From Candidatus Nomurabacteria bacterium GW2011_GWD2_36_14 (GTDB lineage Bacteria; Patescibacteriota; Minisyncoccia; Phycocordibacterales; UBA9973): DNA of 64,000 bases. Both the position numbers and the translations under genes were made by a program. The notes under the pieces are model-generated. The model was given only the letters and a program-made list of their open reading frames with translations. It ran no database searches and was not told the DNA's origin. The DNA lies in assembly GCA_000991405.1 (NCBI GenBank), contig LBRL01000001.1:456466-520465 (forward strand), in the 5' to 3' direction. Below are positions 2,931 to 63,165 of this stretch, piece by piece (position 1 is the stretch's first letter; each line of letters opens with the position of its first letter).

Positions 2931-2955
2931 ACATTAAGTATACCATATTTCCTGC

Positions 2956-3041
2956 GGAGCCGGCTGGATTCGAACCAGCGAGGGGTTTTATCCCCTGCAT
3001 CTTTAGCAAAGATGTACGTTAGACCACTCTGACACGGCTCC
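2956..3041 (-). tRNA. tRNA-Ser (anticodon GCU), type II with long variable arm
   Basis: Hand fold of reverse complement: acceptor GGAGCCG/CGGCUCC, discriminator G, anticodon stem CAUCU/AGAUG with loop UUGCUAA, long variable stem-loop, T arm GGUUCGAAUCC. Confidence 0.8.
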
Positions 3042-3136: not shown

Positions 3137-3223
3137 GGAGGATTGGATGAGTGGTTTAAATCAACGGTTTACTAAACCGTCGTACCTTAACCGGTACCGT
3201 GAGTTCGAATCTCACATCCTCCG
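3137..3223 (+). tRNA. type-II tRNA, Ser-like (G73, long variable arm); hand-folded anticodon loop UUACUAA = ACU (atypical A34)
   Basis: Acceptor GGAGGAU/AUCCUCC + G; anticodon stem ACGGU/ACCGU; variable stem GUACC/GGUAC; T arm GUGAG-UUCGAAU-CUCAC. Confidence 0.65.
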
Positions 3224-3269
3224 CAAATTATATGGTATAATTATATTATTATTTAAATAATATAAATTT

Positions 3270-7225: not shown

Positions 7226-7234
7226 TTATAATTG

Positions 7235-7308
7235 TCCGTCCTCTAGGATTCGAACCTAGGACCCCAGAGGTATAAGCTCTGTGCTCTAACCAACTGAGCT
7301 AAGGACGG
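7235..7308 (-). tRNA. tRNA with anticodon UAU (AUA-decoding Ile-type)
   Basis: RC fold: acceptor CCGUCCU/AGGACGG + A73; D arm GCUC-AGUUGGUUA-GAGC; anticodon stem CAGAG/CUCUG, loop CUUAUAC; T arm CUAGG-UUCGAAU-CCUAG. Confidence 0.7.
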
Positions 7309-48952: not shown

Positions 48953-51451
48953 CTAATTTTCTATATATATCGGATCTATATTCCCTACTTTAATTTCAGG
49001 GCATAGGAAAGGAAGAGAATCTATTCCCCCCTTACTACAAACTATACTATATCTTACTGTCTTTGCAGGCCAAAGAGTCTTGTTTCCTGATGAAGAACCC
49101 GTCCCTCCCAATAAATCTGTAGTAGAGCTACCAGCATACATCTCACAAGATGTAGCATCTGTCGAAGTCCAAGCTACATTCACAGAATCACCTGAATTTA
49201 TCTTAGTATTATTTGGAGTACAAGAAGTAACAACCGGCGAAGTTGATACTACTGGTGGAGTTGTAAATTGTTTAATTAATCCCCAACCATGACCCAAAGA
49301 ATTTGCGGCGAAAGCCCGAACATTATAAGTAGTGTTAGGTAATAATAAAGAATAGTTACTAGCAAAATTTCCCATACCTGCACCATCTATTTTTCTAAGC
49401 ATAAGGTTCTCAGGGTCATTAGGTGCTACATCCCAAGCTACTCCTCTTACAAGGACTGACAGTCCTCCACTATTTGTAACATTACCCCCCAGTATTGCAC
49501 TAGTTGAAGTTACACTTGTAGGAACTGAAGTTGTAACTGTTGGAACGGTATTGAATCCACTACATGCACTTGCTACTGTTCCAGACACTAAAGATGATGA
49601 AGCAGAATCCCCTGAAGCATTAGTGGCTTTAACTGTGTATGAATGAGTTGAATCAAGAGCAAGACCATCATCAGACCCACGACATGTACCATCTGAACAA
49701 TTATTGTAAGACGCTAGAGTAGAAGCCATTATAGGAGTTGCACTTCCATCTTTATAAACTTTATAATTTGTTGCACCTGTTGATGGTGTCCAGGCTAGGT
49801 TCAACCAAGAATTATTACAAGCACTGGGTGATACAGTAAGGTTTGTTGGGGTGGGTGGTGGGGTACAACCTGATACTAGTTTTGAAATTGTTGCAGTCCC
49901 AGAAGTTCCATTTGGTCCCATCGCTGTAAGATTATACGTATAAGTATTCCCTACAGTAAGTCCAGAATCTACAAAAGAATTTGCTGGGCCTGTATATCTA
50001 GGAGCACCAACACCAACTCTAAACAATTGATAAGTAGTAGCGGTTGGAACAAGATCCCATGATAAAGATAAGGACGTACTTCCACAAGCACTTTGAACTG
50101 CTTGAAAGTTTGTAGGAGTAGCAGTCTGATTAGATACAATCACATCAGTCCAAGAACTACAGTTATCATTTTCATTGGCAACTGATCCTTCGTTGATAGT
50201 TCCACTGTTTCCAGAAGAACTTTTGTCTGCACAAGCTCGTACTGAATATGTTCCTGCTGTTATAAATTTATGAGTAGTTTGAGCAACTGTAGCTGGACCT
50301 GTCCCACCGACAGCAAGTGCTGTCATAGAAGAAGAAGGCTTATCAGTTATAGTAGAAGTAGCAGGACAAATTCCTGCCTGAGAAGCAGTAGAACATATTT
50401 GGAAAAAATTGTTAAAACTTGCACCAGTTGAAGCTGTACCCTCATTTGAGATTGTAGAAGAGAATGTTGTGTCAACATTCAACATTGCCCAATTTGGAGT
50501 TGGAGCAGAAGCCTTAAGATTAGGATAAGGAGTTGCTAGTGTTTTGAAAGTTCCATTAGAAGATACTGATCCATTAGTAGAATAAGTGAGTCCTTTATCA
50601 TTCTCAGCTTTTCCACGGAAATAATAAGTAGTATTGGGAGTTAGTCCTGTAGCATCAAAGAAGAAAGTGCCCATGCCTGTGCCCGCTGAATAACAACTTG
50701 TAGAATTAAGTGCAAGTCCATAACAAATAGATCTGGAAACAGGAGGGTCATTGCCATCTGAAGTAACATTAGCAGATAGTCTTGCAGAAGTAGATGTAAT
50801 GTTAGTAGCTGGCTCTATAAGGAGTATAGAAGGAGGAAATGTACCTGCATTAAACGTTACAATACAAGTCTTACTTGAATCCATAGTTACTTGGCCATTA
50901 GCACAATTAGCTGACCAACTACTAAATGCATAACCTGAACCAGCAGACTGGGCAAGAGTAACTGAAGTTCCTGAAGGATATGATCCTGTACAATCAGCTC
51001 CACACGAGATAGCCCCAACAGTAGGAATATCAGATGTCACCGTCCCCGTCCCTACCTTAGTTATAGTGAGAGTATAATTAGTTGCTGCACCAAACGTTGC
51101 GGTACAATTTTTATTGGCATTATTATTGGCACTCATGGTAACAGTACCAAGTGACCCACAGTCTCCACCCCAGACTACTGTAGGTGAATTAGCTGTTATA
51201 GAAACTGCTCCTGTATTTAGAGGATATGTCTCGGTACAAGTAAGGGTTCCAGCTCCACAAACCTTACCAGTATCAAAAGTTATTATCCCAGTATTAGCCC
51301 CTGCCCCCAACTTTGTAACAGTAAGAATAGGATTTGGAGTCACGGTTACTGTTACCTTACTTCCTCCGTTTGTAGCACTAACAGAAGAAATACCTGTGAT
51401 GAAAAATGCAAGGAGAATAAATAAAAATATTTTTATGGTTTTCATATACAA
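48953..51451 (-). CDS. large secreted surface protein with InlB-B-repeat-like module and fibronectin type III-like domains; T/S/G/N-rich
   Basis: Signal peptide; TLTITKVGTGTVTSDIPTVGAISCGADCTGSYPSGTSVTLAQSA (InlB B-repeat-like); Fn3-like TNLTVSPSACNNSWLNLAWTPSTGATNYKVYKDG. Confidence 0.55.
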   Translation of the reverse strand: MYMKTIKIFLFILLAFFITGISSVSATNGGSKVTVTVTPNPILTVTKLGAGANTGIITFDTGKVCGAGTLTCTETYPLNTGAVSITANSPTVVWGGDCGSLGTVTMSANNNANKNCTATFGAATNYTLTITKVGTGTVTSDIPTVGAISCGADCTGSYPSGTSVTLAQSAGSGYAFSSWSANCANGQVTMDSSKTCIVTFNAGTFPPSILLIEPATNITSTSARLSANVTSDGNDPPVSRSICYGLALNSTSCYSAGTGMGTFFFDATGLTPNTTYYFRGKAENDKGLTYSTNGSVSSNGTFKTLATPYPNLKASAPTPNWAMLNVDTTFSSTISNEGTASTGASFNNFFQICSTASQAGICPATSTITDKPSSSMTALAVGGTGPATVAQTTHKFITAGTYSVRACADKSSSGNSGTINEGSVANENDNCSSWTDVIVSNQTATPTNFQAVQSACGSTSLSLSWDLVPTATTYQLFRVGVGAPRYTGPANSFVDSGLTVGNTYTYNLTAMGPNGTSGTATISKLVSGCTPPPTPTNLTVSPSACNNSWLNLAWTPSTGATNYKVYKDGSATPIMASTLASYNNCSDGTCRGSDDGLALDSTHSYTVKATNASGDSASSSLVSGTVASACSGFNTVPTVTTSVPTSVTSTSAILGGNVTNSGGLSVLVRGVAWDVAPNDPENLMLRKIDGAGMGNFASNYSLLLPNTTYNVRAFAANSLGHGWGLIKQFTTPPVVSTSPVVTSCTPNNTKINSGDSVNVAWTSTDATSCEMYAGSSTTDLLGGTGSSSGNKTLWPAKTVRYSIVCSKGGIDSLPFLCPEIKVGNIDPIYIEN

Positions 51452-51976: not shown

Positions 51977-52182
51977 TGGTGGCTGACCCCAATTATCTTG
52001 ATAAATTTATTTTTAAAATAGGGTACAAATGGATCTATGTATAGGGGGAAATTTAAGCTGTTTTTAGCTCGCTAAATTATTAGTGGATTACCAATTGGTA
52101 ATCCACTTTTTGTTTTAAAAATAAGTATTGCTTAGTTATATATTAGTAGTAAAAAAACCACAATTAATCAATAATTGTGGTT

Positions 52183-52665
52183 TTAATCTTTAAGAACAAG
52201 TAAGCTTCTTTCAATCAATAGCTTCATGACATCTTTTTCCCAGTTATATTTGGAAATAAATTCTGGTATAGTCATAAGTTTTCTTTCAAAAGAATCCGAC
52301 TTGGGAACAAATTCATCTAGTACGCAATCCTTTGAAGCATAGAAAAGCATTACTTTATCTTTTCCTTCAAATTGAATTGTGGCGTAAGGCTTAGCATTAC
52401 CAATAATGGTATTTGACTCTTCATAAGTTTCTCTTTTAAGAGCATCTAGTAAACTAGGGTCTGTTTTATTAACGTGACCACCTGGTATATCCCAACCTCT
52501 TTCATTTCTTGCTGTAATTATTTGACCGTCAAAATATCCAACGAGAAATACAGCACTAACATTCTCAGGGTCTGGTAAAGAATTTTCATCAATGAAAAGA
52601 ATTTTCACATTTTTTACTAATACCTTCTCTTCCTTAATTATTACTTCGTTTCCATTTGAAATCAT
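52183..52665 (-). CDS. NUDIX hydrolase
   Basis: Nudix box GGHVNKTDPSLLDALKRETYEESN. Confidence 0.7.
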   Translation of the reverse strand: MISNGNEVIIKEEKVLVKNVKILFIDENSLPDPENVSAVFLVGYFDGQIITARNERGWDIPGGHVNKTDPSLLDALKRETYEESNTIIGNAKPYATIQFEGKDKVMLFYASKDCVLDEFVPKSDSFERKLMTIPEFISKYNWEKDVMKLLIERSLLVLKD

Positions 52666-52760
52666 ATGTACAATAATACCATCTTTTAGAGAAATTAATA
52701 AAAATCTATTATCTATTGCTATCTATCCTTTATTTAAATTATCAATTATAATAAAACTAT

Positions 52761-54512
52761 ATGGAAAAAGAAAACAAAATCTGCCAAAATTGTAAAAAAG
52801 ACTTTACAATCGAATCAGAGGATTTTATATTTTACGATAAAATAAAAGTTCCAGTACCAACTTTTTGTCCAGAATGTAGATCTATTCGTCGATTATTATG
52901 GAGAAATGAACACACACTATATAGAAGAATATGTAATTTATGTCAAAAACAAATTATATCTATTTACTCACAAGAATACCCTGGGTTGGTCTACTGTAAC
53001 AAATGCTTGCATTCTGATAAATGGGATTCTAATAATCAAAAAGAATATGATTTTTCGATACCATTCTTTATCCAATTTAAAGAATTAATAAACTCCACAC
53101 CACTATTAGCATTAAATATTTTTAATTCTGAAAATTGTCAATACAATAATCATATGAGTAATTGTAAGGACTGTTATTTATGTTTTCGAGTTCATAATTC
53201 CAAGAATATGCTCTATACTTATCGCGCAAAACCATGTAACGATTGCACAGACTGCATGGGGGTATTTAATTCTAGTTGGCTTTATTCATGTATTGAGTGC
53301 ATAGATTCAAATAATTCTAAATATTTAGAATTTTGTAGTGGATGTATTGAATCTTTGTTTTTGTATGACTGCCGAAATTGTATGTCTTGCTATATGTGCT
53401 CAAATTTACGTAATAAACAATACTGCTTTATGAATGAGCAATTAACCAAAGAAGAATACCTAAAAAGAATAAGTGAAATTGATTTTGGGTCACGAAACAC
53501 TACAAACAAACTCTTTTTGAAATTTGAAAATATAAAAGCAAATGCGATAAGAAAATATGCGCTGATAACCAATTCAAGTAACGTTACAGGGGACAACATT
53601 AGAAATTCTGAAAACTGCTATCAATGCTTCGATGTTGCTGATATTAAAAATGGAGCATATTTACTTGAAGTATTACACTCATCTCGAGATTCATATGATG
53701 CAATCGGAGGTGGAATGAATGAGCTAGTGTATGAATTTGGTGGAGTCTCTTGTAATAATGCTAAGTTCTGTTTAGATGTCTCTGAGTCAAGAAACATTGA
53801 ATATTGCCAATACAGTGAAAATAATCATGATTTATTTGGTTGTGTAGGATTAAAACATAAAGAATACTGTATTTTAAACAAGCAATACACAAAAGAAGAA
53901 TACGAATTACTTCTCCCAAAAATAATTAATCATATGAATAATATGCCTTATATCTCAAAAGATAATGTTATATATAAATATGGTGAATTTTTCCCAGAAG
54001 AATTATCCCCATTTGCATACAATGAATCATATGCACAAAATTTTTTCCCTTTAACTAAGAAACAAGCATTCGATACAAAAACAGGTTGGCACGAACAAGA
54101 AAAAAGAAACTATCCATTAACAATTGACTCTTCCAATTTAGAAGATAATATTTCCAATGTTACTAAAAATATTTTGGAAGAAACAATTGGTTGCGATCAT
54201 AGAGGGGAATGTCAAGAAAACAATAGTGAATGTAAAGCAATCTGTATTTCTGCTTTTAAAATAACTCCTGAAGAACTTCAATTCTATAAAAAAATGAACA
54301 TACCATTGCCAACATTATGCCCTAATTGTAGACAACACAAAAGACTATTGCAAAAAAACCCCATAAAGCTATGGCACCGTCAGTGTATGTGCAGTACAAA
54401 ACACACTCATCATAAGGATGAACGCTGTGACATAAAATTCGAAACTATATATTCTCCAGATAAATCAGAAATAGTCTATTGTTCAAAATGTTATCAACAG
54501 GAAATATATTAA
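52761..54512 (+). CDS. large Cys-rich protein of unknown function (paralog B)
   Basis: Same N- and C-terminal Cys motifs and internal C-x2-C/NK-Y-ILNKQYTKEEY repeats as 31249-32946. Confidence 0.5.
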   Translation: MEKENKICQNCKKDFTIESEDFIFYDKIKVPVPTFCPECRSIRRLLWRNEHTLYRRICNLCQKQIISIYSQEYPGLVYCNKCLHSDKWDSNNQKEYDFSIPFFIQFKELINSTPLLALNIFNSENCQYNNHMSNCKDCYLCFRVHNSKNMLYTYRAKPCNDCTDCMGVFNSSWLYSCIECIDSNNSKYLEFCSGCIESLFLYDCRNCMSCYMCSNLRNKQYCFMNEQLTKEEYLKRISEIDFGSRNTTNKLFLKFENIKANAIRKYALITNSSNVTGDNIRNSENCYQCFDVADIKNGAYLLEVLHSSRDSYDAIGGGMNELVYEFGGVSCNNAKFCLDVSESRNIEYCQYSENNHDLFGCVGLKHKEYCILNKQYTKEEYELLLPKIINHMNNMPYISKDNVIYKYGEFFPEELSPFAYNESYAQNFFPLTKKQAFDTKTGWHEQEKRNYPLTIDSSNLEDNISNVTKNILEETIGCDHRGECQENNSECKAICISAFKITPEELQFYKKMNIPLPTLCPNCRQHKRLLQKNPIKLWHRQCMCSTKHTHHKDERCDIKFETIYSPDKSEIVYCSKCYQQEIY

Positions 54513-54522
54513 AAACTTATCA

Positions 54523-55488
54523 TTAAGATAACGCTACATAGTTCAGCCAAGATAAGTATCTCTCGTCTTCTCCATGGACTGCATGCTGATAGGCTAATTT
54601 AATTTCTTTTACTATTGGACCTTCTTCTTTATTATTTAAAATATATTCATTGATTTTTGATATTGCATTTACTTCAGATGCAGTACCAGTAAAAAATGCT
54701 TCAGTAAATGTGGGTATTTCATCTATGGAAATATTTTTTTCAATTACTTCATAACCAAGATCGTTTGCGATACGCATTATACTTGCACGAGTAAAACCAG
54801 AAAGAATAGCATTCTCATTTGGGGTGTATAAAACTTTATCTTTCACAAAGAAAATATTTTCACCAGCACCCTCAGCAATATACCCATTTTCATCAAGAAA
54901 TAATGCCTTTTCAAAACCATCTCTTTTAGCATCCAACAGGGCCAAAATAGAATTGGCATAATTACCTGATATTTTTGCAGTCATATCGCTCAAATTAGAA
55001 CTCATTCTAATATATGGCGATACTTTGACAGTAACTGTTTCTCTGGGAAGATATTTCCCCCATTGCCATGTTGCTATAGCAAAATGAATCGGGGTATCAT
55101 CAGTCGGCAAAAGATCCATTTTTTCTCCATAAAATATAATTGGTCGTATGTAGCATTCATTATAATTATTTTGTTTTATTAAATTAATTATCGCAATCAT
55201 TATATCGTTTTCTGAATATGGAATGGTCATTCCCATTATTTTGGCAGAATGAAATAAATGATGTATATGATCTTTCAGACGAAAAACTGCGGGCCCTTTT
55301 GGAGTAAAATAACAACGAATCCCCTCAAAAACACCAGAACCATAGAATAGGCTGTGTGTTAACAATGGAATTCGAGCATCAGCGAGATCCATTACTTTTC
55401 CATCAAACCATATTTTTTTAGACAATGTTTCTGCTTTCATATATTTATTAATTAAAAATAAAATATTAGATATTAACCTGATAACCAT
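54523..55488 (-). CDS. class IV PLP aminotransferase (branched-chain / D-amino-acid aminotransferase family)
   Basis: 321 aa; fold-type IV pattern incl. EGAGENIFFVKD and catalytic-Lys region; 23-nt overlap with upstream PheRS-like gene. Confidence 0.65.
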   Translation of the reverse strand: MVIRLISNILFLINKYMKAETLSKKIWFDGKVMDLADARIPLLTHSLFYGSGVFEGIRCYFTPKGPAVFRLKDHIHHLFHSAKIMGMTIPYSENDIMIAIINLIKQNNYNECYIRPIIFYGEKMDLLPTDDTPIHFAIATWQWGKYLPRETVTVKVSPYIRMSSNLSDMTAKISGNYANSILALLDAKRDGFEKALFLDENGYIAEGAGENIFFVKDKVLYTPNENAILSGFTRASIMRIANDLGYEVIEKNISIDEIPTFTEAFFTGTASEVNAISKINEYILNNKEEGPIVKEIKLAYQHAVHGEDERYLSWLNYVALS

Positions 55489-56725
55489 CAGTATTACCTT
55501 GATGAAGCTTGGGATATGCTAGAGAATAAAGTTCCGCTGATTCTTTCTTTGTCAGTGTTTTATCAGGGTGTCTAAGAATAATACGAACAAGCACATTATC
55601 TTGACCTTCTTTTGCTCCAAGTCTTTCCTTTGCAATTGGTTGCAACTTATCATAAGAAGTTCTTTCTAGTATCTTAACCTCTTCTAATAAATCCGCCTTT
55701 TCTCCAAAGACATTTTTTATAGCTTCACATATATCTTCCTCGGAGTCATTTTTATTAACACAATATGACATATCACGTGCTATTGCTGGCTGATTAGAGA
55801 CATTTTCAAACTTTCTCATATTAGTCATTTGTTTGATAACACGAGGATCTGTAGAACGTATTAGTCTAATGTCTGGTAAATTTTTCCGAGCCATAATCAA
55901 TCTCTCAACGCCCATACCAAGAGCAAGTCCAGAATATTGATCTGGATCAATACCAGAATTCCTTAATACGTCTGGATGAGCAAGACCTGCTTCTAAAACT
56001 TCTATTTCTTTCCCATCAACTTTTGCATAAACTTCAATGCCGTCAATAGTATAAGGGTGCTTTGCTTCATAAACAATCATTTCAGCTTCTGGACAAGCTG
56101 CCTCAAAAACAGTATTAGCTAAATCTAATAAATCTTTTCTCGTAACTTTTCCATATTTTTTACTATCTTGAAGCGTCCAAACATCAATTTGATGAAAAAC
56201 ATCCAAATGTTTAGGGTCAATAACATCACGCCTATACACTAAACCTGGAAGAACAAAGGTTGAACGATCTATATTTTTTTGTAATTTTTCAAATGTTGAT
56301 GGAATTAAAGCAGACGTATGCGTTCTAAGAACATGATTACCATCTACATATCTTGTATAAGTTGAGGAACGCCCAGGATTTCCAGGAGAGAATAACAGGC
56401 TATCAAAATTATCTTTTGCATCAACTTTAGGATCTGATCTCACAACATGAATATCTGGAAAGTGATACTTATTTAACTTTTCAATAACTTGATCATATAT
56501 TCTACCAATAATATTTCTTTCTTGGCCTTCTTCTGTTGGTAAAGTTAAATCTTTAATAGAAAGAAGTTTTTCGATCGTTTCAGGAGAGGAAATTTCAAAC
56601 TTGAGTTGCATAGGTAGCTCTGGATTTTCTTTTGAAATTTCTGTCTTCGCTCTTTCAAGTGCGCTAATATAAGGAGTTTTTTCAGACTTATCTTGATATT
56701 TTTCCATATTTATATAATACCACAC
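55466..56725 (-). CDS. PheRS alpha-like class II aaRS catalytic domain + C-terminal FDX-ACB-like domain (monomeric mitochondrial-type architecture), paralog 1
   Basis: Motif 1 region NFDSLLFSPGNPGRS, motif 2 LRTHTSALIP...GLVYRRD...FHQID, motif 3 GLALGMGVERLIMA; C-terminal FENVSNQPAIARDMSYCV resembles FDX-ACB; no pheT adjacent. Confidence 0.6.
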   Translation of the reverse strand: MWYYINMEKYQDKSEKTPYISALERAKTEISKENPELPMQLKFEISSPETIEKLLSIKDLTLPTEEGQERNIIGRIYDQVIEKLNKYHFPDIHVVRSDPKVDAKDNFDSLLFSPGNPGRSSTYTRYVDGNHVLRTHTSALIPSTFEKLQKNIDRSTFVLPGLVYRRDVIDPKHLDVFHQIDVWTLQDSKKYGKVTRKDLLDLANTVFEAACPEAEMIVYEAKHPYTIDGIEVYAKVDGKEIEVLEAGLAHPDVLRNSGIDPDQYSGLALGMGVERLIMARKNLPDIRLIRSTDPRVIKQMTNMRKFENVSNQPAIARDMSYCVNKNDSEEDICEAIKNVFGEKADLLEEVKILERTSYDKLQPIAKERLGAKEGQDNVLVRIILRHPDKTLTKKESAELYSLAYPKLHQGNTDGYQVNI

Positions 56726-56774
56726 ATATTCATTGTTGCAAATACTTCTATTATAGATTATATTTATAAATATT

Positions 56775-57833
56775 ATGGATAAAAAAATTTATAAAGAAGT
56801 TTTAAGTGAAGTAGAGAAAATAAATTCTCCATTTGTTTCTAAGCAAGGAGAAAATATATACATAATAACAGGAGATCTTTTTAATAAAGTTATAAAATTT
56901 TTTCCACCCCATCTCAAAGATAAAACAGCATCAGTTCCACTTTCAAGTTTGTATTCTGTTTTTTTTCATAAACAAACTAACGGATTAGTTGTAGTCAACA
57001 AGGGCGCTTCCCTACTATCGAGAAGTGTTCTGAGTGGAAGATATATGGTTATACGTCATATAGGATTTGTAGTATATCTCCCTAACCAAGGAATAGAAAT
57101 TATTGATGTTGGGGTTGCAGGTAATTTACATAAAAGTAAATTTACCATCTTGCGACCAGAATCAGCATGCTCACCAGGCTTTATGTTTGGATCACAACGT
57201 TGTAATTGTTACGATCAATGGACATTGTCAAAAGAATTAGCACACGAATATAATTTAATTACAAAGCCGAACCTATCTTCAGTTGAACTTGAAAAATTTC
57301 TAACTTCTGAAATGTTTTTAGATGAGAATAATAATCTAACATCAAAATCAGATGGGCAAGCATTTATAATGGCACACTTTACATCACAAAACGGAATGGG
57401 TAGTGGTGTCATAGAAAATAGTTTCGTTCCTGACTTAACCGCAAATGCTTTTATTCGACATAGAGGTGAATATTCTGCTGAACAAATTCATAAAGTATCA
57501 GTTGCGGGAGGATTTGAATCACTAGGAATAAAACCCGACCCAAGAAAATTAAATAGCGGACTTTCTTTTAGATTAATATCTACTGTTCTTGATTATCTTA
57601 ATGCCCCTAAAAAAATTGTTGCCTTAACAAATAATACTGATAAAATAAATGCCTTAAATAATTCTGGTTATGAAGTTCAAAGACTTCAATTGGTTGCTAG
57701 GGCTGGAGATGGATGCGAAATAGAAATAGATGATCGACGAAACGAATTCGGACATTTAATCCCTGAAAACATATGTGTCTCTTGGGAAGAAGAGCTTGTT
57801 AGGCTAAAGAGTGAAATAAATTCATTATTATAA
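56775..57833 (+). CDS. GTP cyclohydrolase II (RibA)-like enzyme with ~120-aa N-terminal extension
   Basis: Zinc motif C-x10-C-x-C (ACSPGFMFGSQRCNCYDQW); C-terminal IVALTNNTDKINALNNSGYEV like RibA. Confidence 0.55.
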   Translation: MDKKIYKEVLSEVEKINSPFVSKQGENIYIITGDLFNKVIKFFPPHLKDKTASVPLSSLYSVFFHKQTNGLVVVNKGASLLSRSVLSGRYMVIRHIGFVVYLPNQGIEIIDVGVAGNLHKSKFTILRPESACSPGFMFGSQRCNCYDQWTLSKELAHEYNLITKPNLSSVELEKFLTSEMFLDENNNLTSKSDGQAFIMAHFTSQNGMGSGVIENSFVPDLTANAFIRHRGEYSAEQIHKVSVAGGFESLGIKPDPRKLNSGLSFRLISTVLDYLNAPKKIVALTNNTDKINALNNSGYEVQRLQLVARAGDGCEIEIDDRRNEFGHLIPENICVSWEEELVRLKSEINSLL

Positions 57834-57844
57834 TAATAAATTAT

Positions 57845-59233
57845 ATGAAAAAAAAAGTTAATATTGCAATTATTGGTGGTTCGGGGTACTGGTCCGACAG
57901 AAATCATAATAAAAATATACTGGAATTAAAAGATGAACTTACAATTCAACTTACCGCAATTGTTGATCCTATCGACCCTAGAACTGTCAATATTAATAAT
58001 AATACAATAAAACTTTGTACTATCGATAATACCGTATGGATAAACCCTAAAGATTTTAAAAATACAGATGAAATTATTAAAAATCTTAAAGAAAAACTAG
58101 ATGTTAATCTTGTAATTATCGCATCAAACCCTTGCGCACATTTTGAATATGGTATTAGTTGCTTGAAATATGGAATAAATGTCATATGTGATAAACCAAT
58201 AATTAGCAACTATAATGCCTCAACAAGTATAGCTGCCGCTTCCCATATCCGAGAACAATATAATGAACTTCTTGAAGCTTATTATAGAGCTAGAAGACAA
58301 TATCCGAATTTAATGTTCCATTCGATTTTGAGAAGACGATCACTTGAGTCATTTACAAAAGTGGCTAACGAATTAAATAAGGTATACAAAAAAACAAAAG
58401 CCGGAATAAACAATATGACTATGTTGATTAATGGTGGAGTATGTAAACTACCAGCAGAGTTAAGTAACCCAGGGGCTCACGGATATCTTGATGGAGTAGG
58501 ATCACTATCTCATTCCGCATATCACTACATTGATGCTATAGCTTGGTTTGTTTCTATGGCACCAGGAAAAACAGTTGAAATTGTTCCAAAACTTAATTAC
58601 ATAACTAGGATTAATGACTATTTAGATTCTGAAACTTATACAAGTATTGTAAGTATTATAAATGCTAGTCAAGACTCTTTATTAAAACCAAAGCTTTCAA
58701 AAGAAACATTGGGGTGTGAACTTAATGTAGGGTTTACATTTATTATGAACAATAAAGAAAATATTCAGGTTGGTATAATATCTCTTCTTTTCAATCATAT
58801 AAGTTTTACCACCAGAATTAATAATTATGATAAATCAGTTCGAGAGCCAGGAGACCACAAAGGTGGAGGAAGAATGTCTCAGTCTTTTATTGATGTTCAC
58901 CAAGAAGGTTTACAAAACTGGCAGATAATGAAAAACAATGTGGCATTAGGTGATAACACAATTTTACTCCAAGGAAGAAGACACCCATCCATAGAGGGAG
59001 TTGGTTTTGAATGTAAAAATTACGAAAATGCATACGATACTGGTATCAGTATGAAGGAATTATTAGCACATGCAATTAAATACATAGCGGAAGAAAAAGA
59101 TTTAATTGGTCATTCTGTAATAAGAGAACTCCCAGAAGAAAGACTAGCTATTGATATTTACACCTCTTGTTATGAATTAATTGCCAGAGAATACAATAGC
59201 GAGCCTCTTCAAGTCCCAGGAATAAAAATATAA
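57845..59233 (+). CDS. Gfo/Idh/MocA-family NAD(P)-dependent oxidoreductase
   Basis: N-terminal Rossmann VNIAIIGGSGYWS...; VICDKPI motif; 462 aa. Confidence 0.55.
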   Translation: MKKKVNIAIIGGSGYWSDRNHNKNILELKDELTIQLTAIVDPIDPRTVNINNNTIKLCTIDNTVWINPKDFKNTDEIIKNLKEKLDVNLVIIASNPCAHFEYGISCLKYGINVICDKPIISNYNASTSIAAASHIREQYNELLEAYYRARRQYPNLMFHSILRRRSLESFTKVANELNKVYKKTKAGINNMTMLINGGVCKLPAELSNPGAHGYLDGVGSLSHSAYHYIDAIAWFVSMAPGKTVEIVPKLNYITRINDYLDSETYTSIVSIINASQDSLLKPKLSKETLGCELNVGFTFIMNNKENIQVGIISLLFNHISFTTRINNYDKSVREPGDHKGGGRMSQSFIDVHQEGLQNWQIMKNNVALGDNTILLQGRRHPSIEGVGFECKNYENAYDTGISMKELLAHAIKYIAEEKDLIGHSVIRELPEERLAIDIYTSCYELIAREYNSEPLQVPGIKI

Positions 59234-59273
59234 TCAATGAATAAATAGGTAATTTAAATATATTAATTTAAAC

Positions 59274-60245
59274 ATGAAAACTTCATTGAATAAAGAAAAA
59301 AAATATCAAAAAGAAATTCTAAAATTTAAGGGAGAAAAGTGGAATTTTATAAAGGAGCGTATGTTAACAAATAGTAAAATATATAAATCTATTGATGGTT
59401 TAAAGTACTTACATATTGGTAATAATAAGAATATTAAGAAAGAAGCTTTGTGTATAAAAAAAATAAAAAGATTAGGATTCCCTATTCCTGAATTACTTGA
59501 ATATGATAAAACAAAAAAACAGAGCTATTATATTGAAAAATCTGCTGGGGATAAATCTTTTGGAGATAAATTTTATAAAGAATACTTCTCGCAGTCAAAA
59601 ATAAATTCTAATACACTGGAATCCATGTGTGATGTAGTATGTCTTTTTTTGAGGTCACAAATTAGATCTTCTGATTATTTTAACTCAAAATATGACTTGA
59701 GAAAAAATATAATGCTAAAAAATATATTAGTGGAAAATCCTGATTTAAATCATATAAAAGTAGAATTATGTGTTTCAAAAATAGAAAATAGGTTATATTC
59801 ACTACCAACTACTTTTTCCCACGGAGATTTAACACCGCGTAATATATTTGAAAATGGAATTATAGATATTGAATTTAATTCAATTATGCCTGTCGGTTAT
59901 GACGTACTTACCCTACCGATAATGGAACGTTTTTGGGGCTTCAAAAAAAACAAAAATGAAACATATGAAAATTTTTATTTAAGCGAAAAACAAATCTCTC
60001 ATTATTTTAAAAGAATAGAAGCTGAAGCTAAAATAAATGGAATTAAAGATTTTTTAACTTTTAGAAATGACTTCATTTTGCTTAAGGCTATATGGTCACT
60101 TGCCAATGAAAAATATTCCGCAAAAAAATCTGGAGATACATCTAAATTAAATTTTCGTAAAAAAATTTTAATTTATTGTATAGACAAATATTTAAACAAT
60201 GAAATGATTGAAACAAAAAAATTTAAAACATTTATTACTATATAA
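59274..60245 (+). CDS. aminoglycoside phosphotransferase/choline-kinase-like small-molecule kinase (APH fold)
   Basis: Brenner motif HGDLTPRNIF, downstream DIEF. Confidence 0.6.
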   Translation: MKTSLNKEKKYQKEILKFKGEKWNFIKERMLTNSKIYKSIDGLKYLHIGNNKNIKKEALCIKKIKRLGFPIPELLEYDKTKKQSYYIEKSAGDKSFGDKFYKEYFSQSKINSNTLESMCDVVCLFLRSQIRSSDYFNSKYDLRKNIMLKNILVENPDLNHIKVELCVSKIENRLYSLPTTFSHGDLTPRNIFENGIIDIEFNSIMPVGYDVLTLPIMERFWGFKKNKNETYENFYLSEKQISHYFKRIEAEAKINGIKDFLTFRNDFILLKAIWSLANEKYSAKKSGDTSKLNFRKKILIYCIDKYLNNEMIETKKFKTFITI

Positions 60246-60354
60246 GTATTATTAGCCTAGCTAATATAATTATTTCTTTAATTAAGAGATAGTGCTATCA
60301 TGAAACTATTGTTAATTGGTAAAATATTATTAAGAAAAAATAAATAATCTCCAT

Positions 60355-61971
60355 ATGATTAAAATATCAAAAAAAATAAAAAACCTGTTTTATGACCCAG
60401 AAACAGATTCTATTGCTTCTTTATTGCGAGATATCAAAAAAACACATTTAAAATTACTAAAAAAAACTGATTTAGTAAAAGGAACATTAATAAAAAGCTC
60501 AATAAATGACAAAGACTTGATTGATAATTTTAAAATCCCGGAAAAAAGTCTAGATAGTAAATATATATCATCAACCATTTCTAATTTGTTTGATGGTGTT
60601 TCTAGATGGCATTTTCCTAATACAATGTATAATGCTGCCCCTCCCCCACTACTTCCAACTGTAATTACTAAAATGATCACTTCTTTATATAATCCCAATT
60701 TAGCACTCTATTCAGCATCTGGTAAAAGTCTTTTAACTGAACAAAAAGTAATAAAAGCAATCGCAGAATATGTTGGATGGAACCGAGAAAGTGCAGGGGG
60801 TGTCTTTACATGGGGAGGAAAAGCAACAACTATGTATGGAATTAAGTTTGGAATAAAAAATTGTTCTCCAAATTCTGCCGCACAAGGTATAAAAGAAGAT
60901 ATAATTGTATTGTCTACTAAAGTAGGGCATCCTTCTCATATATCTGATTCTGAGTGGCTAGGGATAGGCTCGTCAAATGTCGTCAGGTTGGGGGTAGATG
61001 AAAATTCTCAAGTTAATCTTAATGAAATGGAGGAAATAATTAGAAAAGCAGTAAAAGAAAAAAAGAAAATTGCCACTATTATTATTTCAGGAGGAACAAC
61101 AAACGATATGGTAGTTGATACCATTGATGATGTAGTTAATTTAAGAGATAAAATTACAAAAGAACTTGAATTAGAATATAAACCTCATATTCACGTAGAT
61201 ACAGTCGTAGCATTTCCCTGGATATTCTTTAAAGACTATGAATTTGAAAAAAATCCTCTAAATATAGAAAAAAGAGCATTAGCCAGAATTTCAAAAATAA
61301 AAACGAACCTAAAAAATCTTCATATGGCTGATTCTTTTGGTGTTGATTTTCATAAAATGGGTTTCTGTCCTTATATATCTAGTGTTTTTATGATAAAAGA
61401 TAAAATGGCTCTATCTAACGTTAAAAATGCTTATAACTGGCCATTCTTATATTCAATGGAAAATTCAAGACCAGCTGATGGCCCAAACTCTGCCTTTATG
61501 GCACTTAGTGTACTGGGGGTAGAGGGTTTCCAAATTTTAATAGGACATCTCACTGAGATTGCAGTACATTTACAAGATGAAATAAATGCAACAGAGGATT
61601 TTGAAGTTATAAATAAAACAGGGCTCGGTACTGCTGTTATGTTTATACCACGCATCCCTAAACACATAACAATTAGTACTCCAGAAGAAGAGGTAATTAT
61701 GCGTAATTCGTATACTATGGCTTTTATAGAAAAGCTGGCAGACTTAGGAAATCCTTTTTATATTGATAAAATACCGAGTGATTCAACTGGGGGAAATTCA
61801 TTCCCTTATACATCTTTAAAAGCATATATAATGTCACCTTATTCGAGCAAAAAATCAAATATTGAATTTGTATCATTTATGATTAAAATAAAAAAAGAAA
61901 TTGATCAAAATTTTAATTTCAAAGATAAATCATTTTATGTAGAAGAAGAACATCCCTTAAAAAACAACTAA
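60355..61971 (+). CDS. PLP-dependent amino-acid decarboxylase (group II, fold type I)
   Basis: SGGTTNDMV, DSFGVDFHKMGFCPY (PLP-Lys in HK), 538 aa. Confidence 0.65.
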   Translation: MIKISKKIKNLFYDPETDSIASLLRDIKKTHLKLLKKTDLVKGTLIKSSINDKDLIDNFKIPEKSLDSKYISSTISNLFDGVSRWHFPNTMYNAAPPPLLPTVITKMITSLYNPNLALYSASGKSLLTEQKVIKAIAEYVGWNRESAGGVFTWGGKATTMYGIKFGIKNCSPNSAAQGIKEDIIVLSTKVGHPSHISDSEWLGIGSSNVVRLGVDENSQVNLNEMEEIIRKAVKEKKKIATIIISGGTTNDMVVDTIDDVVNLRDKITKELELEYKPHIHVDTVVAFPWIFFKDYEFEKNPLNIEKRALARISKIKTNLKNLHMADSFGVDFHKMGFCPYISSVFMIKDKMALSNVKNAYNWPFLYSMENSRPADGPNSAFMALSVLGVEGFQILIGHLTEIAVHLQDEINATEDFEVINKTGLGTAVMFIPRIPKHITISTPEEEVIMRNSYTMAFIEKLADLGNPFYIDKIPSDSTGGNSFPYTSLKAYIMSPYSSKKSNIEFVSFMIKIKKEIDQNFNFKDKSFYVEEEHPLKNN

Positions 61972-62052
61972 AATATGTAGATATAATAAATGGGGCTACA
62001 GACATTGTCCATAGCCCCATTGAGTGATTCAATTAATTAATAAATAGGTAAA

Positions 62053-63165
62053 TTACATATACCCTCTATCTCCTTCGTTGAGTTTTGGGTAAAGACGTTG
62101 CATCCATTCATTAACGACAGCTTTGGGTAAAGAACTTTCTAACGAACGGAAAGTTAGTACAACAACTACATTTTTTTGGTGTGGCTGAATACCAAGGTTA
62201 ATCCTGGCTTTTTCTGGAAGTTGATCATAAGAAGTTTCAGAATATTCTATATTCTCTATAAACACAGAATCTGAGCCTAATTCATCCTTAATTTCTTCAC
62301 AAATATCTTCTTCGGTTTTTTCAACAGAAGCAGAATATGAAAGTACTCTCTTGGTAGCGGGCTGATTAGAAACAACAACAAATTTTTCAAGATTTGTCAT
62401 CTGGCCCTTTATCCTAATATCCTCTGACCTTAAAACACGAATATCATCAATCCCTTTTAGAATCATGACGAGCCGATCCAATCCCATACCAAGAGCAAGC
62501 CCAGAGTATTCTTCAGGATCAAGTCCAGCGTTTTTCAGAATAGTCGGGTGAACTTCTCCACATTCAAGAAGTTCTAGCCAATTACCATTCACAAAAATTT
62601 CAATTTCAAGCCCATTTATCGTATAGGGGTGTTCAACTTCATTCGCCCGATATTCATATCCTGGAATAACATTATCCAAAATAGTCTCAACAAAACGAAT
62701 TAAATCTGACCTATCGAAAAGTGGCAATCCTCGTTTGATTCGCCAAACATCCATTTGATGAGGTTCTCCGCAATGATTTTTATCTACGACATCACGACGA
62801 TAACACATCCCTGGAACTAATAATATTGTGTCAGTAATATTATTAGAAGATTTTTTGAGCCATCTTGGAATAGCACATGAGGTGTGAGTACGTAAAATAG
62901 TATCTTCTGTCACATACCTTGTATACCGAGAAGATCTACCTGCATTGTCCAAAGGGAAAAGAAGATCATCAAAATTTTCTTTCAATGAGACTTCAGGACC
63001 AGAACGAACCTCCTCAATAGTTGTTTCGGGGTAAGTTTTTTCAAAAGCCTGTTTTACATTATCAATAATGATATTGATAGCGTGAACCCCATTATCAGGG
63101 TCAGTAAGATCTAAAATTGCCAAAGACGATGCTAGTCGTTCTGGCGACATAATTTCTTGTTTCAT
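62053..63165 (-). CDS. PheRS alpha-like class II aaRS catalytic domain + FDX-ACB-like C-terminus, paralog 2
   Basis: NFDDLLFPLDNAGRS, LRTHTSCAIP, GMCYRRD, PHQMDVW, GLALGMGLDRLVMI; C-terminal VVVSNQPATKRVLSYSA. Confidence 0.6.
   Translation of the reverse strand: MKQEIMSPERLASSLAILDLTDPDNGVHAINIIIDNVKQAFEKTYPETTIEEVRSGPEVSLKENFDDLLFPLDNAGRSSRYTRYVTEDTILRTHTSCAIPRWLKKSSNNITDTILLVPGMCYRRDVVDKNHCGEPHQMDVWRIKRGLPLFDRSDLIRFVETILDNVIPGYEYRANEVEHPYTINGLEIEIFVNGNWLELLECGEVHPTILKNAGLDPEEYSGLALGMGLDRLVMILKGIDDIRVLRSEDIRIKGQMTNLEKFVVVSNQPATKRVLSYSASVEKTEEDICEEIKDELGSDSVFIENIEYSETSYDQLPEKARINLGIQPHQKNVVVVLTFRSLESSLPKAVVNEWMQRLYPKLNEGDRGYM

Follow-up and report, generated by a model that had tools for sequence, protein, structure and literature searches.

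A PheS-related mystery ligase conserved beside a group II decarboxylase in a gene cluster of Patescibacteria

Introduction

Why should two genes resembling phenylalanyl-tRNA synthetase (PheRS) stand at either end of a compact set of amino-acid- and nucleotide-modifying enzymes in a bacterium of the candidate phyla radiation (CPR)? The question is raised by a stretch of 64,000 nucleotides, hereafter the window, of Candidatus Nomurabacteria bacterium GW2011_GWD2_36_14 (Patescibacteriota; GenBank assembly GCA_000991405.1, contig LBRL01000001.1, positions 456,466 to 520,465 of the forward strand). A first reading of the letters alone (the original prediction) had described in it a cluster of seven genes, namely an aminotransferase and a PheRS-alpha-like gene on the minus strand, a divergent run of four genes for a GTP cyclohydrolase II (GCH II)-like enzyme, a Gfo/Idh/MocA oxidoreductase (GFO), a kinase of the APH fold and a pyridoxal phosphate (PLP)-dependent decarboxylase, and a second PheRS-alpha-like gene closing the cluster on the minus strand. 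All seven open reading frames (ORFs) proved to be intact, with the coordinates and strands collected in Table 1. Here we report what the two PheRS-like genes are, which of their neighbours are conserved with them, and which function the conserved association suggests.

Results

The PheRS-Like Genes Belong to the SrmL Family

Both PheRS-like proteins are members of the tRNA-synt_2d group, are 43% identical to each other, and scored above the curated cutoff of 300 bits on the NCBIfam model NF051887, "PheS-related mystery ligase SrmL" (371.8 bits for the protein divergent from the operon, hereafter SrmL-A, and 388.3 bits for the one that closes the cluster, SrmL-B). The original prediction could not put a name to the cluster, but its PheRS-like genes do have one: they belong to a named, uncharacterised family that reaches far outside the CPR. 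On the same model a Rhizobium member reached 442.5 bits, whereas the monomeric C-type proteins described below (241-256 bits) and canonical PheS (96-98 bits) fell short of the cutoff. On the bacterial pheS model (TIGR00468, cutoff 237.45) SrmL-A and SrmL-B obtained 112.9 and 120.2 bits, against 262 and 239 bits for the true PheS proteins of two related loci (L025 and L096; related loci are cited by L numbers), and on the pheS_mito model (TIGR00469, cutoff 258.35) they obtained 137.6 and 134.5 bits. Scores were negligible on sepS (21 bits against a cutoff of 381) and reached 15 bits on PylS, and the Pfam FDX-ACB domain gave 28 bits for SrmL-A (cutoff 31.1) and no match for SrmL-B. No pheT was found beside either gene, and neither pheT nor a canonical pheS in the window plus 10 kb beyond each of its ends (about 84 kb). 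Judged from their sequences, neither gene is an ordinary pheS or a pseudogene, and, as shown below, the genes that they enclose recur with a PheRS-like gene in relatives; these are the points on which the original prediction had made its cluster depend. In public records these SrmL proteins are labelled "Phenylalanyl-tRNA synthetase domain protein" or hypothetical. Our literature search found no paper that mentions SrmL and nothing relevant on monomeric PheRS in bacteria or the CPR; on pheT in Patescibacteria it yielded a remark that CPR bacteria do possess PheRS beta.

An AlphaFold2 model of SrmL-A (predicted local distance difference test score, pLDDT, of 85.6) matched human mitochondrial PheRS (3CMQ) in Foldseek with E = 1.7e-26 and a template modelling (TM) score of 0.68 over 381 columns, in an alignment that was full-length and included the C-terminal anticodon-binding-type domain. 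SrmL thus resembles the mitochondrial enzyme (3CMQ/3TUP; TIGR00469) as a single chain in which a class II catalytic module is followed by a C-terminal ferredoxin-fold anticodon-binding domain, and differs from it by replaced residues around the Phe ring and by a remodelled C-terminal domain that contains an insertion. With bacterial PheS (TIGR00468) it shares a homologous catalytic core, but it lacks the N-terminal coiled coil, the beta subunit and the editing domain.

Alignment showed that SrmL keeps the adenylate-forming and alpha-amino-binding residues, that is RTHTS, YRRD (of the form YRxD), HQ, the motif-3 GxGxxR and the alanine equivalent to E. coli A294, whereas the pocket for the Phe ring is altered in all SrmL clades: FPFTEPS has become HPYT(I/V)(D/N)G, QxEGL has become QxD(V/I)W and GFAFG has become GLA(L/M)G. 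In a motif table of 107 sequences, HQxD[VI]W / H[PH]YT / GLA[LM]G was the signature common to SrmL, read as FHQIDVW / HPYT / GLALG in SrmL-A and as PHQMDVW / HPYT / GLALG in SrmL-B, so that of the E. coli pocket region F248, F250 and A294 both paralogs keep the alanine alone. The adenine-stacking Phe of motif 2 is kept in A-type proteins (FHQ) and is Pro in B-type (EPHQ) and non-CPR members; A-type proteins appear to carry all the ATP-binding residues of class II motifs 2 and 3. The C-terminal domain is strongly conserved within the family (e.g., TEEDICE), contains an insertion specific to SrmL and has diverged from the PheT B8 domain, the score for the PheT C-terminus being 19 bits for A-type against 83-85 bits for C-type proteins. 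The signature and the conserved C-terminal domain are common to the window proteins and the Rhizobium member; what sets the former apart is that they represent two CPR-specific subclades, A and B, which are 34-42% identical to non-CPR members.

SrmL-A Is Conserved with a Decarboxylase and a Kinase

The same set of genes was found on independent contigs (L007/L092, L090, L091, L121, L151, L152), in several arrangements. In L007/L092 and L151 the order is A-type gene, cyclohydrolase, GFO, kinase, decarboxylase, a class I/II aminotransferase and B-type gene, with bracketing as in the window; ilvE and the A-type gene precede the operon in L121 and L152; ilvE, the operon and then the A-type gene follow each other in L090, and the operon and then the A-type gene in L091. 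Reduced versions also occur: in L043 kinase, decarboxylase and A-type gene are separated by gaps of at most 8 bp and accompanied by a methyltransferase and a GFO gene, L054 and L062 are similar, and in L057 and L099-L103 the place of GFO is taken by f588, a distant homolog of it. Overall, SrmL-A adjoins the decarboxylase in at least 15 independent loci, and the kinase is always immediately upstream of the decarboxylase in A-type contexts. The orientation of SrmL-A varies, as it is divergent and upstream in the window, L007, L121, L151 and L152, co-directional and downstream in L043, L054, L062, L090, L091 and L093, and convergent in L057 and L099-L103. The operon of L090 shares 81-87% identity with that of the window, and its A-type gene belongs to a different subclade (56% identical) and sits at the opposite end. 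Since the adjacency has been kept through changes of gene order and of partner, functional coupling rather than inertia is indicated; the juxtaposition of these genes is not due to chance, and the locus is a genuine functional module.

The other members are less constant. GFO is present in L007, L043, L054, L090, L091, L121, L151 and L152. The aminotransferase gene ilvE, which had been counted as part of the cluster, does adjoin it in the window, L090, L121 and L152, but it is replaceable, an Aminotran_1_2 enzyme of class I/II standing in its place in L007 and L151. Close homologs of the cyclohydrolase (at least 68% identity) always lie inside the cluster and are restricted to a few close lineages, homologs of 45% identity or less being found elsewhere. 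As for the bracketing by two PheRS-like genes, it holds for SrmL-A as a consistent linkage, but SrmL-B is found at the closing end in no more than three or four related lineages (window, L007, L151, L123). The SrmL-B gene, likewise of the mystery family, forms a transcription unit of its own, and only in particular lineages does it adjoin the cluster.

One further locus, L123 (10001-13209), resembles a degraded cluster: a decarboxylase match covers residues 220-536 only, after it come a class I/II aminotransferase and a B-type SrmL gene in convergent orientation, and there is no kinase, GFO, cyclohydrolase or A-type gene within 10 kb upstream.

The Decarboxylase Also Accompanies True PheRS Genes

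In a linkage scan, metagenome contigs were searched with the decarboxylase itself, independently of SrmL. For decarboxylases at least 50% identical to that of the window, a PheS-type gene lay within 6 kb in all 11 loci with at least 5 kb on both flanks, and in 26 of 40 loci when any flank length was allowed, whereas for decarboxylases below 50% identity no such gene was seen within that distance in 7 well-flanked loci or in 24 loci of any flank length. The partner was SrmL-A, a monomeric PheRS-like protein that we call C-type (nine loci) or a true pheS-pheT pair (L096, L124); in the pheS-pheT operon of L096 the decarboxylase starts 10 bp after pheT. That the decarboxylase is operonic with true pheS-pheT and also follows the C-type gene in other lineages points to a shared Phe-type amino acid and not to a natural-product assembly line.

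The C-type protein is a monomer of 380-386 amino acids with the near-canonical motifs FHQIDG, FPYT and GWAFG. It reaches 237-244 bits on pheS_mito (cutoff 258), much closer to the mitochondrial enzyme than SrmL is, and may be a bacterial counterpart of mitochondrial PheRS. Past the decarboxylase, L095 (C-type) and L096 (pheS-pheT) are collinear, with a radical SAM gene, a 633-aa protein of unknown function on the opposite strand (f627) and a HisC-like aminotransferase; the C-type gene thus occupies the slot that pheS-pheT occupies in L096 and L124, upstream of a common block of decarboxylase, radical SAM, unknown and aminotransferase genes. An origin of the C-type by recent in-place fusion of pheS and pheT was considered and rejected: the genes upstream in L095 and L096 are not orthologous, the C-type is 30% identical to the PheS of L096, and its C-terminus has no BLAST similarity to the PheT of L096. 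Also rejected was f627 as a missing antiporter, as it has at most one hydrophobic segment. C-type genes were recorded in L014 (17952-19094, minus), L095 (8802-9962, plus), L098, L101, L104-L106, L108, L112 and L115.

Distribution and Phylogeny of SrmL

When 185,579 species genomes were scanned with patterns specific to SrmL, 99 relatives were returned. They comprised A-type proteins from about 45 Patescibacteria (51-80% identical to SrmL-A of the window), B-type proteins from about 20 genomes (53-80% identical to SrmL-B) and non-CPR proteins, 34-42% identical to both, from Rhizobium, Marinomonas, Reinekea, Arenibaculum, Myxococcus, Polyangiaceae, actinomycetes and Gemmatimonadota. Because the patterns are sensitive, having matched 7 of 7 A-type and 118 of 119 B-type sequences ascertained independently, the A- and B-types are indeed rare and of patchy occurrence. 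In an exhaustive search, 1.84 billion representatives yielded only 95 clusters at E of 1e-30 or below, most of them with the SrmL signature, and only three A-type clusters among the full-length, classified ones; SrmL-B has more than 100 close homologs (56-80% identity) in Patescibacteria. In a neighbour-joining tree canonical PheS fell outside, the C-type was sister to a monophyletic SrmL, and within SrmL the A-type was sister to B, a divergent copy D (see below) and the non-CPR members.

Proteobacteria and myxobacteria are known to use ordinary PheST. Since hosts from these groups have a PheRS of their own, and since in the CPR locus L025 a B-type gene adjoins a canonical pheS, the SrmL family as a whole is accessory to PheRS. 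The neighbours of non-CPR SrmL genes are inconsistent, being an amidase and DUF4139 in one case, GGDEF-EAL and YHYH proteins in another, and a MocR-like regulator, Pyridox_ox_2 and a Na:Ala symporter in a third. No cluster is found near most A-type genes (36 of 42 species loci), which lie among gyrB, thrS, an addA-like helicase gene, rnc and smc; those found in such housekeeping surroundings are 67-80% identical. B-type neighbours elsewhere differ as well, with a set of LysRS-like, DCD and S66 genes in some loci and a radical SAM/SPASM enzyme in others.

The first of these B-type contexts was seen in 9 of 19 B-type loci (L001, L003, L011-L014, L019-L021; e.g., L001:7873-13551), where the B-type gene is followed by a conserved block encoding a LysRS-like protein that is divergent (482 aa, with 264 bits on NF001756 against a cutoff of 468), two DCD (dCTP deaminase-like) proteins, a methyltransferase, an ornithine/diaminopimelate-type decarboxylase and a peptidase of the S66 group (LD-carboxypeptidase/MccF-type); this is the second case in which an aminoacyl-tRNA synthetase (aaRS)-like gene is paired with a decarboxylase. 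In six loci (L015:5423-6469, L016, L017:8404-13833, L019, L024, L059) a radical SAM/SPASM enzyme of about 350 aa adjoins the B-type gene; it is accompanied in L017 and L059 by a GNAT protein, an Amidohydro_2 protein, a nucleosidase and a phosphoribosyltransferase, and in L015 it sits between a B-type and an A-type gene. In L022 (11252-12379, plus) a tandem SrmL-like copy, D, directly follows the B-type gene; at 304.8 bits it is barely above the SrmL cutoff, and its motifs are degenerate (HPYLHEAYKG, SAVSAGIMLDR), so that it may be catalytically dead. The canonical pheS of L025 (11189-12220, minus) is not followed by pheT, has the convergent B-type gene downstream, and has no PheT-sized ORF within 10 kb.

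Enzymes of the Operon and the Aminotransferase

The identities originally given to the aminotransferase, the oxidoreductase and the decarboxylase were borne out, as all three exceeded their profile cutoffs. IlvE is a true branched-chain aminotransferase (353.6 bits on the equivalog NF005146, cutoff 279; 333 bits on TIGR01122; Pfam Aminotran_4, E = 4.7e-47). The oxidoreductase has the GFO_IDH_MocA N-terminal domain (PF01408, 49.9 bits against a cutoff of 24), and its matches in the Protein Data Bank (PDB) were weak and all of the Gfo/Idh/MocA family. The decarboxylase matched Pyridoxal_deC (PF00282) with 56.5 bits against a cutoff of 27; its PLP-lysine motif DFHK334MG is invariant in homologs and aligned to DPHK of 6EBN, and its nearest solved relatives, which are distant, are a non-canonical aromatic amino acid decarboxylase and the decarboxylases of 2,4-diaminobutyrate (DABA), tyrosine and tryptophan (E = 1e-14 to 1e-11).

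The kinase gave no direct Pfam or NCBIfam match at E of 0.01 or below. Its assignment to the APH fold is nevertheless supported through its relatives, since the homologs P0242-P0258 (51-74% identity) and the orthologs in L151 and L152 match PF01636/PF01633 and the catalytic loop HGDLTPRN, of the HxDxxxxN type, is present. Only 18 homologs were found among 5.8 billion clusters, and distant ones (28% identity) occur in unrelated contexts without SrmL.

The first gene of the operon had been called GTP-cyclohydrolase-II-like. Its scores on Pfam GTP_cyclohydro2 (PF00925, 18 bits) and TIGR00505 (25.8 bits) lie under the cutoffs of 23.3 and 205.85. The fold is right, because the zinc and TNNxxK motifs are present and because structures agree: an AlphaFold2 model with pLDDT 94.9 found in Foldseek the UTP cyclohydrolase 7EEV (E = 3.5e-6) and E. 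coli GCH II 2BZ0 (E = 8.7e-5), its only significant PDB matches. The zinc motif CX10CXC reads CSPGFMFGSQRCNC, and in an alignment of 65 sequences CX10CXC, QNGMGSG, DPR and TNNxxK were invariant (residues C132, C143, C145, R257, N286, N287 and K290). By fold and motifs the enzyme would be a nucleotide cyclohydrolase for which GTP, UTP or another nucleotide are all possible substrates, so that GTP, implied by the earlier name, is not established. UTP cyclohydrolase acts in the URC pathway (PDB 7EEV; Zhang et al., ACS Catal 2021, as cited in PMC12507026). With it and with RibA GCH II the window enzyme shares the zinc motif, the catalytic DxR, TNNxxK and the fold, but it is 17% identical with TM scores of 0.35-0.41, has an N-terminal domain of about 115 aa and an insertion of 44 aa, and is accompanied by none of the other genes of the riboflavin or URC pathways.

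Neither the cyclohydrolase homologs at or below 45% identity nor the kinase homologs at 28% were kept as guides to function, their contexts being unrelated and without SrmL. Chemistry of the FO/F420 or riboflavin type was also dropped, as the radical SAM protein of related loci resembles MoaA/SPASM maturases, CofG and CofH are absent among its 25 best NCBIfam matches, and there is no RibD, RibH or RibB nearby. The GCH II-fold family of the operon is widespread, up to archaea and a Clostridiales metagenome-assembled genome (P0151, P0162, P0170, P0185, P0207, P0234; L008-L010); members are fused to NUDIX, RibD-type deaminase (PF00383) or methyltransferase domains, their genes are often preceded by an NrtR-like NUDIX regulator, and on one archaeal contig such a gene heads a cluster of radical SAM, PRAI, aminotransferase, cyclase, phosphoribosyltransferase and HAD genes.

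Discussion

A Shared Amino Acid for Ligase and Decarboxylase

The main finding of this work is the conserved association of SrmL-A with a specific group II PLP decarboxylase and an APH-type kinase, which is the first reproducible genomic partnership for any SrmL clade, and in which the decarboxylase accompanies true PheRS as well. To our knowledge, neither this linkage nor the series from PheRS through the C-type to SrmL has been described previously. We tentatively favour, with somewhat less than even confidence, the explanation that one Phe-like amino acid is the substrate of both SrmL-A and the decarboxylase, the specificity of SrmL-A being changed. The conserved core would then be the coupling of SrmL-A, a single-chain class II ligase derived from PheRS, with the decarboxylase; an aminotransferase (IlvE here, HisC-like elsewhere) and the kinase would be nearly always attached to this core, and the dehydrogenase and the enzyme of the GCH II / UTP-cyclohydrolase fold would be lineage-specific additions. 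Ligase, decarboxylase and probably aminotransferase may draw on one amino acid, either phenylalanine itself or a closely related aromatic analogue of higher polarity. Using ATP, SrmL-A would convert it into the aminoacyl-adenylate and probably transfer it to a tRNA-like acceptor by means of the remodelled anticodon-binding-type domain, while the decarboxylase would strip the carboxyl group from the same substrate or from its phosphorylated derivative. The common substrate and the acceptor, like the roles of kinase, dehydrogenase and cyclohydrolase, are what we infer from gene content and active sites. SrmL-A is more likely to be an extra, specialised ligase than the only PheRS of the cell.

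Known decarboxylase clusters offer an analogy, in which a dedicated aaRS-like gene stands beside the decarboxylase of its amino acid, as in the tyrS-tdcA and hisS-hdcA clusters, and on which the proposed arrangement may be modelled. In the enterococcal tyramine (TDC) decarboxylase cluster a tyrS-like gene is embedded, and ligase and decarboxylase share the amino acid (PMC3315439). Here, too, an aaRS-type gene lies beside a group II PLP decarboxylase in a linkage conserved across lineages; unlike tyrS/TDC and hisS/hdcA, the present cluster has neither an antiporter nor a T-box leader, its ligase pocket is remodelled rather than cognate-like, and it contains the additional kinase, dehydrogenase and cyclohydrolase genes.

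Several observations weigh against a shared Phe-like substrate. No amine/amino-acid antiporter goes with the cluster, unlike the tdc and hdc loci, and neither of the recurrent proteins f627 and f588 is a membrane protein. A module for simple decarboxylation would need neither the kinase nor the dehydrogenase nor the cyclohydrolase. The likeness of the decarboxylase to aromatic decarboxylases is weak (E about 1e-14), with DABA decarboxylase scoring equally, and the SrmL tree is a neighbour-joining tree without support values. In addition, no other PheRS was found in the roughly 84 kb inspected of a contig of at least 800 kb, and an A-type gene was never seen beside a canonical or C-type PheRS within a locus, which also fits SrmL-A being the organism's own PheRS.

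Alternative Explanations

The last point leads to an alternative that is unlikely and yet has to be taken seriously, namely that SrmL-A is the lineage's housekeeping monomeric PheRS of mitochondrial type, which has replaced pheS-pheT, that its adjacency to the decarboxylase is an old gene order, and that only SrmL-B is accessory. SrmL-A fills the same PheRS slot as pheS-pheT in two loci and the C-type in nine; B-type genes were seen within 10 kb of A-type, C-type or canonical pheS genes, and the latter three never occur together within a locus; most A-type genes sit in the conserved housekeeping surroundings described above; and the A-type keeps the motif-2 Phe that B-type and non-CPR forms have lost. 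The lack of canonical pheS and pheT in the 84 kb inspected agrees with this as well, although, as this is about a tenth of the genome, it means little. However, the A-type has all the derived pocket changes and the remodelled C-terminal domain of the SrmL proteins of Rhizobium, Marinomonas and Myxococcus, which are necessarily accessory there. Its PheT-C-terminus score is far below that of the C-type, it groups inside SrmL on the tree and not with the C-type, and it passes the SrmL model while failing both PheS models. The scan, though sensitive, recovered it from only about 45 of the 185,579 species genomes, too patchy a distribution for an enzyme serving as PheRS throughout a large lineage.

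Paralogs of aaRS are known outside translation: MshC is a Cys ligase, SepRS works with SepCysS, aaRS catalytic domains have been recruited together with tailoring enzymes, and aaRS paralogs that acylate metabolites exist. MshC and SepRS/SepCysS are possible models for SrmL, with no homology to it beyond class II membership. Along these lines it is conceivable, though rather improbable, that the operon builds a small molecule (a phosphorylated amino-alcohol, an aminocyclitol or a ring-opened nucleotide derivative) to which one or both SrmL ligases attach an amino acid, either directly from the adenylate, in the manner of MshC, or via aminoacyl-tRNA. Dehydrogenase with aminotransferase and kinase with decarboxylase are classic tailoring pairs, and the plus-strand operon is tightly packed, with gaps of 11, 40 and 109 nt; the kinase-decarboxylase pair is invariant in A-type contexts, the cyclohydrolase has retained its zinc and catalytic residues, the pocket and the acceptor-binding domain of SrmL are altered, and in the clusters that contain the cyclohydrolase the slot after the decarboxylase is always taken by an SrmL gene, of B- or A-type. 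Against this, the decarboxylase is equally linked to pheS-pheT and to the C-type in loci that have no kinase, dehydrogenase or cyclohydrolase, the cyclohydrolase is limited to a few close lineages, and non-CPR SrmL genes lack consistent biosynthetic neighbours. Moreover, searches of the seven genes and their neighbours with Pfam and NCBIfam profiles found no domain of a scaffold-forming enzyme (such as an NRPS, a PKS or a RiPP precursor with its maturase), carrier protein, transferase, exporter or resistance protein. The aminoacyl-adenylate- or aminoacyl-tRNA-dependent pathway to a small molecule or nucleoside, which the original prediction had put forward, is thus not the best-supported explanation, given the linkage to pheS-pheT and a cluster with no scaffold enzyme, transporter, dedicated tRNA or riboswitch.

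A broader form of these ideas, that the substrate activated by SrmL is a non-canonical amino acid, either phosphorylated or aromatic and more polar, and that SrmL-A either works with the adjacent kinase and PLP enzyme in a tRNA-dependent transformation of an amino acid, a third system beside SepRS/SepCysS and PSTK/SepSecS, or aminoacylates a nucleotide-derived metabolite made by the cyclohydrolase, dehydrogenase and aminotransferase, we regard as a long shot. If true, an SrmL with a non-canonical substrate would put the aaRS scaffold to a new use and account for the "mystery ligase".

Taken alone, a conversion on tRNA in the style of SepRS/SepCysS or PSTK/SepSecS, in which SrmL-A charges a tRNA and the kinase and the fold-type-I PLP enzyme modify the bound residue, is very improbable. 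The types of component do fit, with a ligase of the PheRS/SepRS class, a kinase and a PLP enzyme always adjacent, and the C-terminal anticodon-binding-type domain is retained and strongly conserved in SrmL. Yet neither the window nor any of 27 related loci has a dedicated tRNA gene next to the cluster; the PLP enzyme is of the Pyridoxal_deC family, with a distant likeness to solved decarboxylases that does not suggest SepCysS or SepSecS; the kinase is of APH type and not a P-loop enzyme like PSTK; the sepS score is negligible; and the decarboxylase also follows an ordinary pheT. Finally, the possibility that housekeeping and accessory genes with no relation to each other came to lie side by side by chance in a compact genome, for which one could invoke the gene density of CPR genomes and the variable adjacency of ilvE and SrmL-B, can practically be dismissed, as the same genes occur together on at least seven independent contigs in several orders and the decarboxylase-PheRS linkage separates the subfamilies cleanly (11 of 11 against 0 of 7).

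Under the favoured explanation, that of a shared Phe-like amino acid, a curated "mystery" family becomes experimentally approachable through one question: which amino acid do SrmL and the decarboxylase share? Cultivable hosts of SrmL (Rhizobium tropici, Marinomonas spartinae, Myxococcus) open the family to knockout. The proteins also form a graded series, from two-subunit PheRS to the monomeric C-type in the CPR and on to SrmL (A, then B and the non-CPR members), with defined changes of active site and acceptor domain at each step. If the C-type is a functional PheRS, bacterial counterparts of the mitochondrial enzyme would exist, which bears on the origin of the one-chain PheRS.

Locus Layout and Additional Observations

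Table 1. Features of the SrmL-A cluster, with positions counted from the first nucleotide of the window.
Feature	Position	Strand	Remarks
ilvE	54523..55440	-	Longest ORF extends to 55488; public annotation starts at 55440
SrmL-A	55466..56707	-	413 aa from ATG 56707; 419 aa from GTG 56725
Divergent intergenic region, SrmL-A and four-gene operon	56708..56774		Promoter-like hexamers overlapping on both strands
Cyclohydrolase (GCH2L), operon gene 1	56775..57833	+	GTP cyclohydrolase II / UTP cyclohydrolase fold
Gfo/Idh/MocA NAD(P)-dependent oxidoreductase	57845..59233	+	PF01408; C-terminal half uncharacterised
APH / choline-kinase-family small-molecule kinase	59274..60245	+	HGDLTPRN loop; homologs PF01636/PF01633
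Group II PLP-dependent amino-acid decarboxylase	60355..61971	+	PF00282; DFHKMG motif
Terminator-like GC-rich hairpin	61989..62021	-	Between convergent decarboxylase and SrmL-B
SrmL-B	62053..63165	-	370 aa, B-subclade; separate transcription unit convergent with operon

On the minus strand ilvE lies 25 nt downstream of SrmL-A. The divergent region between the two halves of the cluster, originally measured as 49 nt, has this length if SrmL-A starts at the GTG, but 67 nt with the ATG start of the public annotation. It contains promoter-like sites on the plus strand (56736-56764) and the minus strand (56742-56714), both recognised by consensus matches, the regional count of which is not above the shuffled expectation. 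The hairpin between the decarboxylase and SrmL-B has 15 pairs, 7 of them G-C, a loop of 3 and a T-rich tail after it, and upstream of SrmL-B there is a strong promoter-like site that agrees with the consensus in 11 of 12 positions (63329-63301). An Rfam scan found no T-box or riboswitch in the window, no transporter is encoded within the cluster, and eight proteins tested with PADLOC gave no match to a component of a defence system.

Directly upstream of ilvE, at 52761-54512 (plus), a Cys-rich protein of 583 aa with many CxxC pairs is encoded, which has no Pfam, NCBIfam or PADLOC match and whose position is kept in the other assemblies of this organism. Within the window, G+C content is lowest (0.288-0.293, compared with 0.31-0.41 in the remainder) at 52001-54000 and 58001-62000, stretches that span this gene and the distal half of the operon and that may reflect a foreign origin or merely AT-rich genes. 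Two other proteins of the window are unrelated to the cluster: a 911-aa protein with weak matches to VirD4/TraG/HerA-type ATPases (26828-29563, minus) and a putative surface protein of 832 aa, rich in Thr, Ser and Asn, with faint fn3 matches (48953-51451, minus). Three tRNA genes of the window lie at 2954-3041 (minus), 3137-3224 (plus) and 7234-7308 (minus) and include a tRNA-Ile with anticodon TAT. At the first two positions a predicted tRNA-Ser(ACT) stands back-to-back with a tRNA-Ser(GCT); a serine tRNA with A34 is unusual for bacteria, and tRNA-Ser(ACT) was seen again in L123 (14521-14609, minus).

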